Assembly: GCA_965215565.1 (NCBI GenBank)
Contig: CBDCDZ010000004.1
Location: 3,392,001 to 3,456,000, forward strand
Direction: 5' to 3'
Length of the DNA stretch: 64,000 nucleotides
Source of the DNA: Trueperaceae bacterium
Lineage (GTDB): Bacteria; Deinococcota; Deinococci; Deinococcales; Trueperaceae
A model generated the notes under the pieces. That model was not told where the DNA came from, ran no database searches, and saw only the letters and a program-made list of their open reading frames with translations. Below are positions 52,556 to 60,590 of the stretch, in pieces (the stretch's first letter is position 1; every line of letters begins with the position of its first letter). Made by a program: the position numbers and the translations under genes.

Positions 52556-53851
52556 CTACTCCGCTTCCAGCAGATTCATTACATAGTCTCGCGAAATTTT
52601 GTCTAACAGTCCCATTGCTCTTACGCGCTCTATTAGTTCGTCTTCTGTACCGCTGATAAGTGCTTCAATAAAGTAGTCAAACCCCGGCATCATCTTACGT
52701 CTTCCATTAAGAATGCTGGCTACTCGGTGAAATTTTGGATTGCCTCCGCGCTCTAAGATAGGGCAAGCCGCAATCAAAAATACTACTTCATGCCAAAGGT
52801 TCCTGATGTCAAAGAAAAAGTCGCTCAGAGTAAGCAAACTGTAAAGAACACTTTCTCGGTCCTGATACTTTACTGCAAGCTCAAGTGAAGAGAAGAAGAA
52901 TTTAAGAGCATGTTTGTAGTTTCGTTTCCGCCAATAAACATGACCAATATTCCTAGTTACTATAGTAACACCTATATAGTCGTCTATCTTCTCAAAGATG
53001 GCTGAAGCTTCAGAGTAACAGCGCAGTGCTTCTTCGGTATTTCCCAAAGCTAGGTAAGCATTTCCAAGATAATCAAGCTGCGCCGCCGCCTCTTCTGCTT
53101 TGCCAATTCTTCGAGCTACTGCCAAGGCTGCACAATGACGCCTTCGTGCCTTATTAGGTTCATTCATTTTAAGGGCTACTCCTCCCATCTCTCTAAGAGC
53201 CCGTAGCTTCAATGAAATTTCACCTGTTTTGCGAGCAATACCAAAACTTTTCGTGAAGTGTTCTAGCGCTTTTTCATGATTGCCCAGTTCCCGTTCTATC
53301 TCTCCAATGTCATGGAGCAACGCGCTTTGCGTATCTCGATTCCCCAATTCCTCAGCGATAACTAGAGCTTCTTCGCGAAGCTGCTTTGAAGCCCTATCCC
53401 CAAAAATATTAGCGACAATGCCAGCAAAACTACCGAGTGCTTGTAGCTCATCTTCGCGATAACCGAAGGCTCTAGCAATGAATAGAGATATAGCAGCAAG
53501 CTCATACGCTTTATACCGTTTGTCCATTTCATATCTACCTAGCTGATATAAAGCAATAGCTTGATTGCCTATAGCTTTGCCTTCTCCACGTTTGTCGCCA
53601 AATTTTCGAGCAATTTCAGCCGATCGTTCATGACACTCAAGAGCTTTCGCGTATTCCTTAGTATGTAAATAGCTATTTCCAAGATTAAGTAGAATGACAC
53701 GTTCCAAATCGCAATAGTCATGCTTATTGACTAACCTTAAAGCTTCCTCGTGATATTCTACAGCTCTTTCAGAAAAATTGAGTTTTTGACCAATATTTCC
53801 TATCTTATCTAGAGTTACAACTTCGATACGATGCTCTGGTTCTCGTATCAA
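52556..53851 (-). CDS. TPR-repeat protein, in frame with the upstream NB-ARC ORF (probable C-terminal sensor of one split gene)
   Basis: Multiple TPRs (LGNSY, IGEIE--LG, LGNAY--LG); only a weak TTG start 9 nt after the upstream TAG. Confidence 0.8.
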   Translation of the reverse strand: MIREPEHRIEVVTLDKIGNIGQKLNFSERAVEYHEEALRLVNKHDYCDLERVILLNLGNSYLHTKEYAKALECHERSAEIARKFGDKRGEGKAIGNQAIALYQLGRYEMDKRYKAYELAAISLFIARAFGYREDELQALGSFAGIVANIFGDRASKQLREEALVIAEELGNRDTQSALLHDIGEIERELGNHEKALEHFTKSFGIARKTGEISLKLRALREMGGVALKMNEPNKARRRHCAALAVARRIGKAEEAAAQLDYLGNAYLALGNTEEALRCYSEASAIFEKIDDYIGVTIVTRNIGHVYWRKRNYKHALKFFFSSLELAVKYQDRESVLYSLLTLSDFFFDIRNLWHEVVFLIAACPILERGGNPKFHRVASILNGRRKMMPGFDYFIEALISGTEDELIERVRAMGLLDKISRDYVMNLLEAE

Positions 53852-53860
53852 ATCGAAAAC

Positions 53861-55579
53861 CTAAAAAGCTAAGTCGAGCGCCGACCAATATTGAGACGTT
53901 CTCATCAGATAAATGTGGACTGCATCTAAAACTGCAATAAAGTCTTTTTGTTTGGGCTGTAGTCCTGGAAGCAAATATACAGCCTGTTCCCAGTAGACCT
54001 TATAAAGTTGTAGGTCAATTCTTCGCGTTTCAGGTTCATGCCCTTCGAGAAGTTCGTGAACGAGTTGCCATGTTTTAGCCTTTAACCCCTCCTCACTACC
54101 CTCTTCTTCAAACTTCTCTTTGGCGTATTCCCAAAGCAGTGCGTGTAAAGAGTACTTCTCCTTAGAGGTGTCGAGGAGTGAGCGCCGCCCCAACTCAGTT
54201 AGCGCACGCTTAACAGGAAACTCTTCTAAACCGCCCATGTAAACGATAGATGCTAAGTTAGAGCCCGAAGGCATCAAAGTACCCATGACCTGAAAAATAC
54301 GTTTCTGCTCCGGTTTTAGATGCTCATAAGAAAGCTCGAAGGACAGGCGCACGCTGCTTTCTGAACTTAATGAACTATCCTCATAGCGTTCGAGATACTC
54401 GAGGCGCTTTTGCCGCAGTTCAACCAGGGCTTTTTCAGGGCTTCCGTCAAAATAGCTGTTGATCTGCACGGCCAATAAGTTAATAGCGAGAGGTAGATAG
54501 CCGAGTAGCGAACAAATCTCATCCACTGCTTCAGTCTCGGAATCTTCAGGGAGTCTCGAGTCGTTGTAGAACTGCTTCCTGGCTGCATCTGGCGAAAGTT
54601 TACCTACTTGGATACTATGCACTAATTCGTGACTCACCGCTGCCCTGCTTGTAAGGAGTAACTGTGCAGGACGGACAGCTTCAATAAAGCCGCGAATGAG
54701 TTCGGGGGCTTCGAGATTGTCAATAACGAGCAGCCGCTCATCTGAGCGAAAAAGCTCTTTGGCTAGCTCGAGAACATCGCCCTCAACGCGACCTTCTATA
54801 AACTTGCTCGCCGCTTTTTCGGCAAGCAACTGGATTTGCTGCCCGACGGATTCGCCTCCATGTATTCCCGATAGGTCTCTCGCGTTTACTATAGTTGCGC
54901 CAAGTATCATTTCTTCAGAAGCTGTAACGTGTTGAGCAAGCGTGCTTTTACCTACACCGGGAAGACCGAAGAGTTGGACACGTTGCCGCTCCTGCAGGGC
55001 TTTTCTAATCTTAGCTTCAAGTTCGTCACGCCCCACGACTTCAGCTATAGGAGCATCAACTTTCGGTACGCGAATTTTGCGCCCTAAATCTCTTCCAGTA
55101 AAGAATCGCGTCGCGATAGCTTTCAGCGTATCGTCTGCAGAGGGATTGTCTAACTCTAAAAGTATCTCCCTACCATAGTGCCAGTGAATTGAGATTCCGG
55201 CACTGTTAGCTATGCCTTCAATCTTGTCTCGGGCTGAGGTTTGTTGTACAGCATCCTTATTGATGTAGAAGTCGATGCGTGCAAGCTCGGTATAAGCATC
55301 CTGCTCCTTCTTCTTGACTGCTTTTTCTACTGAATCCTTGCACTGTGACCAATCAATGCCATTATCAAAATGCTTTGCTTGGTAAGAAGCGAAAACCTTT
55401 TCACCCTCTACTTCGACTTCAATAGGTTCAATCTCGACGCCCGGTTGATTTTTGTGCTCCTTGATCTTCCATGCTGAAATGTTGTGGCGATGCAAGAATA
55501 GATAATGAGATAGATTTTGAAACTCAGCCGTTTCCTTACCTGCGTTGATGTAGTCAAAGCCTCTCCATGTGATGGACAC
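53861..55579 (-). CDS. PD-(D/E)xK/Mrr-like nuclease fused to an NB-ARC STAND ATPase (Avs/NLR-like defence protein, N-terminal part)
   Basis: N-terminal NQPGVE...YQAKHF; Walker A GLPGVGKST, Walker B LLVIDN, LLTSR, GYLPLA, SFELSY and YSLHAL motifs; low GC. Confidence 0.82.
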   Translation of the reverse strand: MSITWRGFDYINAGKETAEFQNLSHYLFLHRHNISAWKIKEHKNQPGVEIEPIEVEVEGEKVFASYQAKHFDNGIDWSQCKDSVEKAVKKKEQDAYTELARIDFYINKDAVQQTSARDKIEGIANSAGISIHWHYGREILLELDNPSADDTLKAIATRFFTGRDLGRKIRVPKVDAPIAEVVGRDELEAKIRKALQERQRVQLFGLPGVGKSTLAQHVTASEEMILGATIVNARDLSGIHGGESVGQQIQLLAEKAASKFIEGRVEGDVLELAKELFRSDERLLVIDNLEAPELIRGFIEAVRPAQLLLTSRAAVSHELVHSIQVGKLSPDAARKQFYNDSRLPEDSETEAVDEICSLLGYLPLAINLLAVQINSYFDGSPEKALVELRQKRLEYLERYEDSSLSSESSVRLSFELSYEHLKPEQKRIFQVMGTLMPSGSNLASIVYMGGLEEFPVKRALTELGRRSLLDTSKEKYSLHALLWEYAKEKFEEEGSEEGLKAKTWQLVHELLEGHEPETRRIDLQLYKVYWEQAVYLLPGLQPKQKDFIAVLDAVHIYLMRTSQYWSALDLAF

Positions 55580-55659: not shown

Positions 55660-56001
55660 CTACATCTCGAGCTGAAACCGTACAGCATCTAAAATAGCTC
55701 GTTTTAGCTTAGCGTCGGTTAGCTCGCCGAACTCTCTACCCAACCTCGTTTTATCAAGCGTGCGAAGCTGGTAACAGAGTGCCACAGAGTCAACTTTGAG
55801 ACCGGCAGTTTCAGCCCTCAGCAGCACTTCATTCGGGTACATCCGCCTACCTTTGTAAGAGGTTAAGGGAATGATGTTGACGACACGCAGAACCTGGTTG
55901 CTCTGCTCGCGGCTAACGACTAACACGGGGCGAACACCGGCTTGCTCAGAACCTTGAGTGGGGTCAAGTGAGGCGAGGAAGACGTGCCACTGGTAAATCA
56001 C
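55660..56001 (-). CDS. PemK/MazF family toxin
   Basis: LDPTQGSEQAGVRPVLVVS; PLTS; QLRTLDK-RL. Confidence 0.93.
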   Translation of the reverse strand: MIYQWHVFLASLDPTQGSEQAGVRPVLVVSREQSNQVLRVVNIIPLTSYKGRRMYPNEVLLRAETAGLKVDSVALCYQLRTLDKTRLGREFGELTDAKLKRAILDAVRFQLEM

Positions 56002-56676: not shown

Positions 56677-58611
56677 TCAGCGCACCTCTGCCCCGCTCGA
56701 GACTTCTCTATCCAACGCCAAAACGCTCAAAGTGTCTGCGTCTTCCGCTGCCAAGATCATCCCCTGCGACAGAACACCGCGCAGTTTGACAGGTTTGAGG
56801 TTGGCGACGATCACGACTTTTTTCCCCACCAACTCGTCCGGCTTATAAAACTGCTTGATGCCCGAGACGATGGTGCGCTCCTCGGGTCCGAGCTTGACGG
56901 ACAAGACCAAGAGCTTATCCGCTTTCGGGTGCGGCTCCACCTTCGTGACTTCGGCGACGCGAAACTCGAGCTTGCCGAAGTCCTCGATCGTCACCTCGGG
57001 TTTGTGCTCCAAGGTCTCCTCTTTGTCCTCTAACGATTCTTGCAGCGCCGCCATGTCGATGCGCGGAAAGAGCGGTTGTCCAGGCTTGGTCTGCGTACCC
57101 TCTGGCGTGAGGTTCCACCTCCCAGCGTCTTGCAGCGTCACCTCACCCGTGAGCCCGAGCTGTTCGCGGAGTTCTTTCGACTTCTGGGGGATGATGGGCT
57201 CGAGTAAGATGGACGCGCACCGCAAGGATTCCGCGCAGTTGTACAAAACCGTATCCAAACGCGCCGCGTGCGCTTCGTTTCGCGCCAAAACCCAGGGCTG
57301 CGTGTCGGCGATATATTTGTTTGCCTTGCGTACCGCCTCCAAGACTTTTTCAATGGCCCGCTCGAACTGGAGCGCGTCGAAGAGGTCACTCACCGTTTGG
57401 GGCAAGTCGGCAAAGGCGTCGCGAAGTTCAACGTCGATCGGTTCCAGGTCACTCGGCTTGCCAATTACGCCGTCTCGGTACTTCCCGAGCATCCCCAGCG
57501 TGCGGTTCAAGAGGTTGCCGAGGTCGTTGGCTAAGTCCGAGTTGATGCGCTCTGCGAGTCCCACCTCACTGAAGGTCGCATCTAACCCGAAGCTCATGTC
57601 GCGCAAGAGGTAGTACCTAAAAGCGTCGTTGCCGTACGTGTCCTTGAGGTCCAAGGGACGCACCACGTTCCCCTTAGACTTGCTCATCTTGCCGCCGTCC
57701 ACGAGCCAGTAGCCGTGCACGTTGAGGTGTTGGTACACGGGTAACTCCGCCGCTTTGAGCATGGTGGGCCAGAAGACGCCGTGCGGTTTCAGGATGTCTT
57801 TGGCGATGAAGTGTTGGGCGTGCGGCCAGTACCGCTCTGTCAGGTCTTGGCTCTCCAAGGCCGAAAAGTAGTTGATGAGCGCGTCGAACCAGACGTACGT
57901 GACGTGGTTCTCGTCCCAGGGTAAGGGGATGCCCCACGGCACGCGGGCGCGGGGGCGGCTGATCGAGAGGTCGCCGATGGGCTCGCGTAAAATCCCTAAG
58001 ACCTCATTGCGGTAGCGCTCCGGGCGGATGAAGTCGGGGTTGTCTTCGATGGTTTCGCGGAGCCAGGGGCGATACTTCTCCATGCGGAAGAAGTAGTTCT
58101 CTTCGCTGCGGTACTCGAGCTTGATATCGTGCTGCGGGCACCTGCCGTTTGTAAGTTCTTTCTCCGTGTAGTAGCGCTCGCAGCCCGTGCAGTAAAGTCC
58201 GCCGTATTCGCCGAAGATGATGTCGCCCTTGTCGTACACGCGCTGCAAAATTTCACGGACGACTTTTTGGTGGCGCTCCTCGGTGGTGCGGATGAATTCG
58301 TCGTAGTGGATGTCCAAGCTATCCCAAACCGCGCGGAATTGACCTGCGATCTGGTCCGTGTACGCCTGCGGCGAGAGGTTGGCGGTCTCAGCGGCTTTCT
58401 GAATCTTCTCGCCGTGCTCGTCGGTGCCCGTCAGGAAGTAGGTGTCGTCCCCTTTGAGGCGATGAAAGCGCGTCACCACGTCCACGAGTGTGGTGGTGTA
58501 GGCGTGCCCGATGTGGGGTTCCGCGTTGACGTAGAAGATGGGGGTGGTAGCGTAGTAGGTGGTTTTCGTAGGCGTATCAGTGGCGCCTTTCTTCTCTTCT
58601 GCGGTGTCCAT
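56677..58611 (-). CDS. metG: Methionine--tRNA ligase with C-terminal tRNA-binding domain
   Basis: HIGH, GTDEHG, YVWFDAL and KMSKS motifs; GGAGG RBS before ATG 58611. Confidence 0.97.
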   Translation of the reverse strand: MDTAEEKKGATDTPTKTTYYATTPIFYVNAEPHIGHAYTTTLVDVVTRFHRLKGDDTYFLTGTDEHGEKIQKAAETANLSPQAYTDQIAGQFRAVWDSLDIHYDEFIRTTEERHQKVVREILQRVYDKGDIIFGEYGGLYCTGCERYYTEKELTNGRCPQHDIKLEYRSEENYFFRMEKYRPWLRETIEDNPDFIRPERYRNEVLGILREPIGDLSISRPRARVPWGIPLPWDENHVTYVWFDALINYFSALESQDLTERYWPHAQHFIAKDILKPHGVFWPTMLKAAELPVYQHLNVHGYWLVDGGKMSKSKGNVVRPLDLKDTYGNDAFRYYLLRDMSFGLDATFSEVGLAERINSDLANDLGNLLNRTLGMLGKYRDGVIGKPSDLEPIDVELRDAFADLPQTVSDLFDALQFERAIEKVLEAVRKANKYIADTQPWVLARNEAHAARLDTVLYNCAESLRCASILLEPIIPQKSKELREQLGLTGEVTLQDAGRWNLTPEGTQTKPGQPLFPRIDMAALQESLEDKEETLEHKPEVTIEDFGKLEFRVAEVTKVEPHPKADKLLVLSVKLGPEERTIVSGIKQFYKPDELVGKKVVIVANLKPVKLRGVLSQGMILAAEDADTLSVLALDREVSSGAEVR

Positions 58612-58648
58612 GTTGACCTCCATATGTGGAACATAAAATTTAGAACAT

Positions 58649-58677
58649 AAAAAAAGGACGCTCTTCGCAAAGCGCCC
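58649..58677 (-). terminator. Intrinsic terminator (attenuator) in the metG leader
   Basis: - strand GGGCGCT-TTGCGAAG-AGCGTCC-TTTTTTT, upstream of the metG start. Confidence 0.8.
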
Positions 58678-58697
58678 TGTGACGGTTAAGTGTGGAC

Positions 58698-58739
58698 TTA
58701 TCCGTGACCAGGGTGAAGTTGCATCATTCGCCAGTTCAT
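58698..58739 (-). CDS. Putative metG leader peptide MNWRMMQLHPGHG
   Basis: ATG 7 nt after an extended -10 (TGCTATACT); tandem Met codons 5-6; the 3' part overlaps the antiterminator arm. Confidence 0.7.
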   Translation of the reverse strand: MNWRMMQLHPGHG

Positions 58740-58985
58740 AGAGGTGAGTATAGCAGAAAAAGAGGTCGGGCGCGTTTTCTCGTAGTCGGCTGAGTTTTAG
58801 TGAGACTGAGGGATGAAGCGGCGGCTTCAAACTTTCCGACTTGGGGTCTAAGTTCTACTTGACGCGCGGTCTTGTCCTCGAGTCGGAGGATGTCTCAGCA
58901 ATATAGTTTTCTCACACGGTTTGTGAAGCGAGCCGTCGTGTAGGGTAGCCTCGAGAAAGGAACTACACAATTAGGGGGGATAGCT

Positions 58986-60590
58986 ATGGACCAACCGCAG
59001 TTTGATTTAGCTACGATTGATATCGTTATCATCGTGCTCTACTTCGTGGGCGTCATCGCGCACGGCGTCTACATGAGCCGCAAGGGAAACGAGGACGCCG
59101 AGGGGTACTTTTTAGCGGGGCGCGGGTTGCCCTGGTACCTCATCGGCTTCTCGCTCTTCGCCTCGAACATGTCGGGCTCGTCGTTCGTCGGGCTAATGGG
59201 CGGGGCGTACGACAACGGGCTCGTCATCTTCAACTACGAGTGGACCGCCGCGTTGGTCCTCATCTTCTTCGCCTTCTTTATGCTGCCCTACTTTTTGCGG
59301 GCGAACCTCTTTACGATTCCCGAATACTTGGAGACCCGCTTCGACAAGCGCTCGCGCTACGCCTACTCCGCCTTTACGGTTTTGGCGATCATGTTTATCG
59401 ATACGGCGGGGGCGCTCTACGCGGGCGGGTTGGTTATCACCACCGTCTTCTCAAACTTCGCGCTGTGGCAGGCAGTGGCAGTTTTAGCCTTCGTCGCGGG
59501 CATCTATACGATTTTGGGCGGGCTTTCCGCCGTCGTCGTGACCGACACGGTACAAGCGATTTTGCTCATCGTGGGTGCGACGGCGATCTTTATCATCGGC
59601 TTAAACCAGGTGGGTGGTTGGGGTGAAATGACGAGCCAGCTCGCGCCCGGTCAGCTCAGCCTTATCAGACCTGTAGGTGACGACTTTCTGCCTTGGCCTG
59701 GTATCTTGGGCGTGATCTTGCTCGGCTTTTACTACTGGACCTTAAATCAGTTTATCGTGCAGCGCACTTTGGGGGCAAGCAACTTAGATGAGGGACGCAA
59801 AGGGGCGCTCTTCGCCGGGCTCTTAAAACTCCCCAACCTCTTCATCATGATATTACCGGGCGTCATGGCGCTCCTCTTATACCCTGAGCTGTCCAACCCT
59901 GACTTGGTTTTCCCGACGCTCGCGTTTGACCTCTTGCCTATCGGTCTGCGCGGGCTCGTGATGTCGGCGCTCATCGCCGCGATTATGTCGAGCTTGGACT
60001 CCGCGCTGAACGCTGCCTCGTCGCTTATCACCTTGGACTTCATCAAAGAACTCCGCCCTGACACCTCGCAGAGTACGCTCGTGCGGCTCGGGCGCATCAT
60101 CACGGGCGTCGTCATGGTCATCGGCGCAATCTACGCACCCGCGATTGCCAGCTTCGAGACGCTCTTTGAGTACTTTCAGTCGGTGCTCTCTTACATCATA
60201 CCGGCCATCGTCGCTGTCTACATCATCGGGCTTTTTTGGAAGCGCATCAACGCGAACGGCGCGTTCTGGACGATCCTTTCGGGTCTCGTCGTCGGCATTC
60301 CCCTCTTTATCATGAAAGAGGTCACGAATGTCTGGACAAATATCGGTCTGCCGAACATCCACTTTACCTACATGGCGGTCCTGATGTTCATCTTCGCTTT
60401 CGTCCTGATGACGGTCATCAGCTACGCCACCGAAGCACCCGACCCCGAAAAGATTCGCGAGTACACCTTTACGCGGGAGAACTACCGGGAGGACATCAAG
60501 GGTCAGGGCGTGCCCTGGTACCGCGACTTTCGCTACCAGTCCGCGGCGCTCTTCGTGCTGATGGCGGCGACGGTGGTGTACTTCTGGTAG
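58986..60590 (+). CDS. Sodium:solute symporter (SSS/SLC5 family, sugar-type)
   Basis: YFLAGR, SLFASN, TIPEYL--RF, GGL-AVV-TD and AAIMSSLDS motifs. Confidence 0.93.
   Translation: MDQPQFDLATIDIVIIVLYFVGVIAHGVYMSRKGNEDAEGYFLAGRGLPWYLIGFSLFASNMSGSSFVGLMGGAYDNGLVIFNYEWTAALVLIFFAFFMLPYFLRANLFTIPEYLETRFDKRSRYAYSAFTVLAIMFIDTAGALYAGGLVITTVFSNFALWQAVAVLAFVAGIYTILGGLSAVVVTDTVQAILLIVGATAIFIIGLNQVGGWGEMTSQLAPGQLSLIRPVGDDFLPWPGILGVILLGFYYWTLNQFIVQRTLGASNLDEGRKGALFAGLLKLPNLFIMILPGVMALLLYPELSNPDLVFPTLAFDLLPIGLRGLVMSALIAAIMSSLDSALNAASSLITLDFIKELRPDTSQSTLVRLGRIITGVVMVIGAIYAPAIASFETLFEYFQSVLSYIIPAIVAVYIIGLFWKRINANGAFWTILSGLVVGIPLFIMKEVTNVWTNIGLPNIHFTYMAVLMFIFAFVLMTVISYATEAPDPEKIREYTFTRENYREDIKGQGVPWYRDFRYQSAALFVLMAATVVYFW

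Follow-up and report, generated by a model that had tools for sequence, protein, structure and literature searches.

What governs the expression of metG, the methionyl-tRNA synthetase gene, in a member of the Trueperaceae is the question raised by the short region that precedes this gene in the window, the whole stretch of 64,000 nucleotides that was analysed. The gene itself (56677..58611, on the minus strand, as are all features of this locus) encodes a protein of 644 amino acids with a C-terminal tRNA-binding domain, identified by NCBIfam PRK12267 at 862.5 bits against a cut-off of 598 and also scoring above the NCBIfam cut-offs for TIGR00398 and TIGR00399, and its ATG at 58611 stands behind the Shine-Dalgarno sequence GGAGG (58617..58621). 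The original prediction had placed a methionine-sensing leader peptide upstream of metG, and each part that it claimed for this leader matches base for base when the minus strand is read across 58200-59400. An extended -10 element of the form TGn-TATACT, TGCTATACT (58747..58755), is followed after a spacer of 7 nt by the ATG of a leader ORF (58698..58739) that comprises 13 codons plus TAA and encodes MNWRMMQLHPGHG. Codons 5 and 6 are tandem Met codons (58722..58727), which their sequence and conservation mark as the predicted sensing codons, and directly 5' of the first of them lies CGA (58728..58730), a conserved but rare Arg codon. The arrangement is that of the leaderless leaders of Deinococcota, with TGCTATACT and its 7 nt directly before the start codon, and the predicted transcription start is the A of the leader ATG (58739) or a base beside it. 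Contigs from two runs of one sample match the leader without insertions or deletions, and are not counted as support since they are possibly the window's own source.

Downstream of the Met codons two structures share a short strand. A predicted antiterminator hairpin (58675..58713), identified by folding and alignment, has the outer helix CCCTG/CAGGG and encloses an inner hairpin (58682..58705, by folding) that holds the leader stop codon. The second structure is an intrinsic terminator (58649..58677), recovered also by a terminator scan, with a 9-bp G+C-rich stem (58677-58656), a GCGA loop and seven T (58655-58649), located 38 nt before the metG start codon. The shared element is GGG at 58675..58677, which folding assigns both to the 3' strand of the antiterminator and to the bottom of the 5' arm of the terminator. 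The long hairpin folds at -17.5 kcal/mol (z -3.98) and the terminator at -15.2 kcal/mol (z -3.72), and for neither did any of 200 shuffles do as well. The elements of an attenuator are present in that the upstream ORF carries cognate codons, an intrinsic terminator lies between this ORF and the gene, and an alternative helix, mutually exclusive with the terminator, has its 5' strand inside the ORF and overlaps the terminator by only 3 bp, namely the three G-C pairs of the GGG, to which the A at 58678 is added. When the whole leader is folded without constraint, its structure of minimum energy has the terminator and the inner hairpin and not the full antiterminator, and this, together with so short an overlap, means that any switch must be kinetic or nearly balanced.

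Several other features of the region were recorded. The metG frame remains open for 73 codons upstream of the true start, across the whole leader (58611-58830), and the resulting 717-aa ORF from a TTG at 58830 covers both metG and the leader, such that automatic annotation could hide the latter. A weak hairpin with CAU in its 4-nt loop overlaps the metG Shine-Dalgarno sequence (58619-58630) and is absent from L003, of the same genus, and a promoter-like site at 58927-58900 in the window differs in the sister genome. Beyond the end of metG lies a MazF/PemK-like ORF (55660-56001; NCBIfam matches below the cut-off), followed at 52556-55579 by two ORFs that appear by eye to be NTPase-like and TPR-repeat-like.

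The reading that we favour, and consider quite probable on the conservation, covariation and modelling set out below, is that the metG leader is a ribosome-mediated transcription attenuator that senses Met-tRNA and allows read-through when the charged tRNA is scarce. RNA synthesis would begin at the AUG, and a 70S ribosome would load there leaderlessly. With plentiful Met-tRNA this ribosome would pass CGA-AUG-AUG and within a further one to two codons cover the CCCUG strand, so that GGG would be free, the terminator stem would close and transcription would end at the U-tract. With scarce Met-tRNA the ribosome would wait at one of the two Met codons, 5 or 6, which lie 14 and 11 nt ahead of CCCUG, the antiterminator would keep the GGG, the base of the terminator would stay open and metG would be transcribed. 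A leader that is not translated would be expected to read through as well, since no protector helix is predicted, and a shortage of initiator fMet-tRNA would push in the same direction as a shortage of elongator Met-tRNA.

Conservation of the leader was assessed across the Deinococcota. Methionyl-tRNA synthetase was sought in 41 relatives, in 364 genomes of the phylum and in 125 of family f2, and upstream DNA was taken from 174 distinct genomes, picked by coordinates rather than by leader content except at one f2 locus. With one locus whose gene start is missing (L025), five duplicate loci and one locus without an anchor (L119) left out, 173 loci were retained, distributed over families f1 (73), f2 (70), f3 (14), f4 (12) and f5 (4). 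Family f1 is the Trueperaceae, and L184, L206, L223 and L237 are Trueperaceae records with the same leader; f2 is read as Deinococcus-like and f4 as Thermus/Meiothermus-like, names that we infer. A caller blind to Met, which required a TAnnnT box, a spacer of 5-11 nt, an ATG or GTG start and a stop within 4-35 codons, picked out such an ORF, short and anchored to a promoter, upstream of metG at 134 of the 173 loci. Internal Met codons are present in 130 of these 134 ORFs, against 466 of 2519 ORFs obtained with the same caller from the whole of the window's own genome as a control (13 of the 2519 having Met-Met), although related genomes are not independent samples and these counts therefore show conservation and not significance. 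By family, internal Met occurs in 62/62 called ORFs of f1, 52/56 of f2, 1/1 of f3, 11/11 of f4 and 4/4 of f5; every one of the 130 Met leaders has the box 5-10 nt ahead of its start codon, as the caller's design dictates. Genera with a leader number 30 of the 34 sampled in f1, 7 of 8 in f2, 1 of 4 in f3, 2 of 2 in f4 and 1 of 1 in f5, and the leader is present in all five families. The caller found no match at 11 of the 73 f1 loci and at 13 of the 14 f3 loci.

What is conserved is a reading frame with Met codons inside it. Within the ORF bodies ATG triplets occur 240 times in frame and 3 and 20 times in the two other frames, and the distance from the start codon to CGA-ATG is a multiple of three in 93 of the 95 loci that have CGA-ATG, the exceptions being L164, whose called ORF has no Met, and L002, from the sister species. 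Leader length spans 7 to more than 25 codons, a single internal Met is found in 26 of the 62 f1 leaders, and the stop codons of the 134 calls are TAA (22), TAG (44) and TGA (68). The comparison of metG upstream regions that had been proposed as a check of the original prediction was thus favourable to it, with Met codons conserved across Deinococcota and, as described below, both hairpins covarying.

Some individual loci deserve mention on their own account. In L002 (genome G001), the closest relative and a member of the same genus, a 1-nt insertion, downstream of the start and ahead of CGA-ATG-ATG, shifts the Met codons out of the leader frame and joins the leader start in frame to metG; this extra base may be an assembly error or a real loss of the switch. 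The f3 loci (L028-L030 and L131-L140) account for the 13 of 14 that have no leader, and in genus g30 a -10 box stands 8 nt ahead of metG's own start codon and the gene is leaderless. The shortest form belongs to f4 (for example L027 and L048), with 7 codons and one Met, and there the competing hairpin opens with the stop codon's G and overlaps no more than the bottom 1-3 terminator pairs. A loose pattern scan of contigs returned at least 120 stretches, mostly chance matches and not informative on other phyla; among the matches listed (120), eight adjoin a methionyl-tRNA synthetase gene, seven with a leader and one (L292) without. No second full copy of the leader was found in the own genome among the 150 of 2192 candidates scored with covariance model R1, where the next match was partial at 26.8 bits.

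The two hairpins were examined in alignment A1, which holds 50 of the 62 f1 leaders, the other 12 having been set aside as long or atypical. The antiterminator is paired in 84.5% of cells, with two-sided change at 10 of 13 pairs, and the terminator in 94.4%, with two-sided change at 6 of 9; the covariation scores of both were reached by none of 500 shuffles, and slid partners in A1 pair at only 33-69%. Several sequences pair one base out of register, as read by eye, and were scored as unpaired. The covariation lies mostly in the inner hairpin and the upper terminator; the outer antiterminator helix varies little, being mostly invariant C-G with two-sided change at 3 of 5 pairs. In L015 the middle G of the shared GGG is an A and both of its partners are T, a three-way change. 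Six or more T occur in the 9 nt after the terminator stem in 55 of 60 f1 leaders. RNAalifold on A1 returns two structures, the inner hairpin and the terminator, with none predicted further upstream, and a protector hairpin (1:2, A:B) was sought in A1 columns 1-39, where no consensus helix was found.

Conserved structure of this kind might also belong to an element that works through RNA alone, T-box-like, a SAM riboswitch or a site of protein binding, with the ORF incidental. The internal loop in the window contains UGGU, which presumably resembles the T-box antiterminator bulge matching tRNA-Met, and T-box-like elements do occur elsewhere in the own genome. The latter, however, sit at other genes, UGGU is not conserved in A1, no Rfam family matches in the window at its gathering score (three chance-level local matches were seen, none of them a SAM aptamer), and both the reading frame and the stop codon are conserved; we consider this explanation highly improbable. 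A T-box at the metG leader was rejected as a candidate, there being no conserved UGGN bulge in A1 and no Rfam match at the locus. The two T-box-like matches in the own genome, both below the gathering score, lie on contig C4 of G000 at 1514425-1514740 (plus strand) and 783219-783541 (minus strand) and score 82.2 and 71.1 bits; the class I synthetase genes in their vicinity appear by eye to be ileS- and valS-like.

How the position of a ribosome would bear on the two structures was modelled by blocking the RNA as far as 8 nt beyond the first nucleotide of whichever codon occupies the A site, with one footprint length, and comparing the ensemble in which the bottom three terminator pairs are closed with that in which their 3' strand is held open; this is an equilibrium proxy for a kinetic process. 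From the 134 calls, 118 leaders were analysed after removal of 8 with no Met or no recognisable hairpin, 3 without an anchor and 5 with a wrong one, and the terminator was re-anchored in 11 leaders before the walk. For the window the terminator-minus-antiterminator difference is +1.3 kcal/mol without a ribosome and +1.7 kcal/mol when Met5 or Met6 occupies the A site, and it falls to -1.1 at Gln7, -6.4 at Leu8 and -4.4 at the stop codon. In silico, then, the spacing is such that a stall frees the antiterminator and passage blocks it. Relative to the first Met, a ribosome at the stop codon shifts the balance towards the terminator by at least 2 kcal/mol in 55/60 leaders of f1, 30/42 of f2, 1/1 of f3, 10/11 of f4 and 4/4 of f5. 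Conservation, covariation and this modelled walk all agree with the part of the original prediction in which stalling at Met-Met frees the antiterminator; its further proposal, that termination needs translation to the stop codon, does not hold in the model, in which the switch comes one or two codons after Met6, at Gln7 or Leu8.

Among the 88 leaders that have at least 6 T after the stem and a profile that is not flat, the modelled switch falls 1-3 codons after a Met in 79, compared with a mean of 30 and a maximum of 46 of 88 when the same number of Met codons was placed at random in 5000 trials. The distance from start to switch ranges over 2-21 codons and that from switch to stop over 1-13 codons, and with both varying so widely the switch tracks the Met codon. 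The fit is not uniform. Met codons stand at or after the switch in 12 of the 88 leaders, no more than 11 of 42 f2 leaders switch 1-3 codons beyond the final Met of their first cluster, and genus g24 fits poorly, with a good U-tract in only 8 of its 31 analysed leaders. By a cruder pairing measure, a ribosome placed at the stop codon still leaves the GGG paired upstream at 0.5 or more in 39 of 62 f1 leaders, a number that a longer footprint lowers to 25 of 62. In the truncated transcript without a ribosome the antiterminator forms in 62 of 62 f1 leaders; the full-length leader without a ribosome prefers the antiterminated form in no more than 34 of 60, a narrow margin on account of which default read-through remains a prediction.

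These results bear on two further explanations. If only initiation were sensed, by way of fMet-tRNA on the leaderless AUG, the internal AUGs would be spare starts or a motif acting at the RNA level, and the behaviour of the truncated transcript, antiterminated throughout f1, indicates that failed initiation alone would suffice. Against this, the internal AUGs keep frame with the 5' start, those in the window have no Shine-Dalgarno sequence of their own, and it is the distance from Met to the switch that is held fixed and not that from the start, so that we regard sensing by initiation alone as improbable. The second explanation is that a constitutive terminator merely damps metG, the ORF and the long hairpin fixing the level of read-through without regulation. 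The presence of the terminator in the minimum-energy fold of the whole leader would suit such an element, as would its loss or breakage in some relatives, possibly including the sister species, but a fixed damper needs no in-frame Met, still less one at a constant distance from the switch, and this explanation seems very unlikely. Attenuation by a ribosome waiting for Met-tRNA remains the reading that we prefer.

The codon before Met is conserved as a codon and not simply as an amino acid. Of the 107 Arg codons that precede Met, 98 are CGA, compared with 31 of the 216 other Arg codons of the leaders, and CGA makes up 5.8% of the Arg codons in long ORFs of the own genome, in which no tRNA-Arg(UCG) was found. 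According to the part of PMC4046918 available to us, CGA is slowly read and gives strong de-attenuation in a Salmonella his leader assay. The CGA would likely slow the ribosome at the sensing site. A reading of the CGA-ATG word itself as a pause site was considered and was supported by none of the tests. The choice of codon also lends something to the idea of a leader that senses in general how fast translation runs, or how it is coupled to transcription, in which slow CGA or the supply of Arg-tRNA would set the delay and Met would not be the main signal: the conservation at codon level, the missing tRNA-Arg(UCG) and the Salmonella result would all be expected, and in the model CGA in the A site is still a read-through state. 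Met, however, persists where CGA has been lost, Arg-Met being absent from 30 of 130 Met leaders, including 9 of 11 in f4, and the leaders of other synthetase genes in the genome hold their own amino acid, so that a pure speed sensor is unlikely, and Met-tRNA is retained here as the main signal.

Those other leaders were inspected in the own genome. An own-amino-acid leaderless ORF precedes 5 of 10 other non-T-box synthetase genes, none of these ORFs having an internal Met: cysS (two Cys), thrS (three Thr), pheS, leuS (four Leu) and a second proS. No cognate leader ORF was found before tyrS, trpS, lysS, asnS or the window's proS; the names cysS, thrS, tyrS and, for the window, proS come from profile matches, those of the remaining synthetases from motif and eye. 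Similar short ORFs precede leuC-like and ilvB-like genes, and in the leaders of cysS and thrS, too, a CGA immediately precedes a cognate codon. On contig C4 of G000 these leaders stand upstream of 4379186 (minus), 3349629 (minus), 1889362 (plus) and 3629518 (minus) and at 4246676 (plus), 515860 (plus) and 1016743 (plus), the seven being those of cysS, thrS, pheS, leuS, the second proS and the leuC-like and ilvB-like genes. The occurrence of cognate leaderless ORFs at several synthetase genes places metG within a genome-wide set of leaderless leader peptides.

In family f2 the region between leader and gene has taken a different course, many Deinococcus-like leaders having lost the U-tract and carrying a second promoter. 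Some f2 loci have a second -10 box between leader and metG, corresponding to the mapped and stronger start at -53 in D. deserti, where the start sites reported for metG in the available part of PMC4007540 are -182 (966 reads, the leader) and -53 (3317 reads). After this box, and just before the Shine-Dalgarno sequence, lies a hairpin whose stem of 5 bp closes the 7-nt loop Y-Y-C-A-U-Y-A, examples of which are found at L148:515-579 (plus), L149:322-386 (minus) and L142:511-575 (plus). This arrangement occurs at 23 of 70 f2 loci versus 0 of 103 others, also where the leader ORF is absent, and CUCAUAA is the anticodon loop of all three CAU tRNAs in the own genome. When 21 such loci are aligned with three that have another loop, the stems are paired in 90.4% of cells with two-sided change at 7 of 11 pairs. 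From these sequence features the f2 hairpin may be a candidate MetRS operator that mimics the anticodon, for which the E. coli thrS operator, an anticodon-mimic operator, offers the comparison.

Taken together, the metG leader is well conserved and, on alignment and modelling, is likely a transcription attenuator that senses Met-tRNA. Methionine is an awkward amino acid for leader-peptide attenuation, because one and the same shortage stalls the ribosome and hampers its loading; if the leader is truly on by default, poor initiation and stalling would act in the same direction for Met. A broader view, which we offer tentatively and would not press, is that of a phylum-wide, three-strand, default-on attenuator for an amino acid that both starts and extends peptides, which would report both tRNA products of MetRS, with CGA sharpening the response, and which would decay in many Deinococcus-like genomes, to be joined there by a second promoter with a mimic of the tRNA-Met anticodon loop as a possible operator for self-repression by MetRS. 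The family is a compact test case, at about 55-90 nt from start codon to U-tract, and illustrates how Deinococcota regulate synthetases by leaderless ORFs instead of T-boxes. Its value is moderate, as the kind is a textbook one and the metG case was predicted in 2014; what is added here is that no protector hairpin is predicted, that a rare CGA codon precedes Met, and that many Deinococcus-like leaders lose the U-tract and carry a second promoter together with a hairpin that resembles the tRNA-Met anticodon loop.

Among known systems, E. coli trpL and pheM-pheST are the classical leader-peptide attenuators, pheM also controlling a synthetase. With Salmonella hisL, as far as described in the part of PMC4046918 available, the metG leader shares cognate codons in a short ORF and an antiterminator that overlaps an intrinsic terminator, with read-through as the predicted outcome of a stall; it differs from hisL, trpL and pheM in being leaderless, in sensing Met, which also starts the ORF, and in having three strands and not four. 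The protector helix was sought and not found, and the leader is for this reason not filed under the four-segment trp/his subtype; untranslated, the Salmonella his leader stays off (same source), whereas the metG leader is predicted to stay on. The T-box (Rfam RF00230) likewise controls synthetases by a choice between terminator and antiterminator according to tRNA charging, features of it that the metG leader does not share being a match to that family and a conserved UGGN bulge. Mycobacterial polycysteine sORF attenuators (bioRxiv 10.1101/834739, in the part available) are also leaderless with cognate codons, of which two are enough there; they act on access to the ribosome-binding site and are locked off when untranslated, whereas the metG leader has an intrinsic terminator.

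The open-access literature, to which the search was mostly confined as against subscription papers, yielded no experimentally tested Met-codon attenuator and only a table entry for Deinococcus deserti; the available part of PMC4833913 does not mention methionine. The entry comes from de Groot et al. (2014; PMC4007540), who, in the part of the paper available, report 60% of D. deserti mRNAs as leaderless and list 14 putative leaderless attenuation leader peptides. Table S9 of that paper gives Deide_09379, MMFRFLSKMRMLRCS, as a putative methionine--tRNA ligase leader peptide with its transcription start on the A of the ATG, and neither methionyl nor metG is mentioned in the available portion of the main text. 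The statement in the original prediction that no Met-codon leader-peptide attenuator was known for metG is contradicted by this entry, and a leader of this kind had already been predicted for the same gene and phylum in 2014. Locus L148 encodes the same 15-residue peptide as Deide_09379 in the same position before metG. Like Deide_09379, the leader in the window is a leaderless short ORF behind a -10 box, upstream of metG and containing Arg-Met, and the D. deserti set also has Cys, Thr, Phe, Leu, leuC and ilvB leaders, as the own genome appears to have. D. deserti has, unlike the window as described, a second and stronger promoter downstream of the leader, and, whereas Deide_09379 is known from the part of that source available as a row in a table of mapped transcription starts, the leader in the window has a clear U-tract terminator and a covarying antiterminator.
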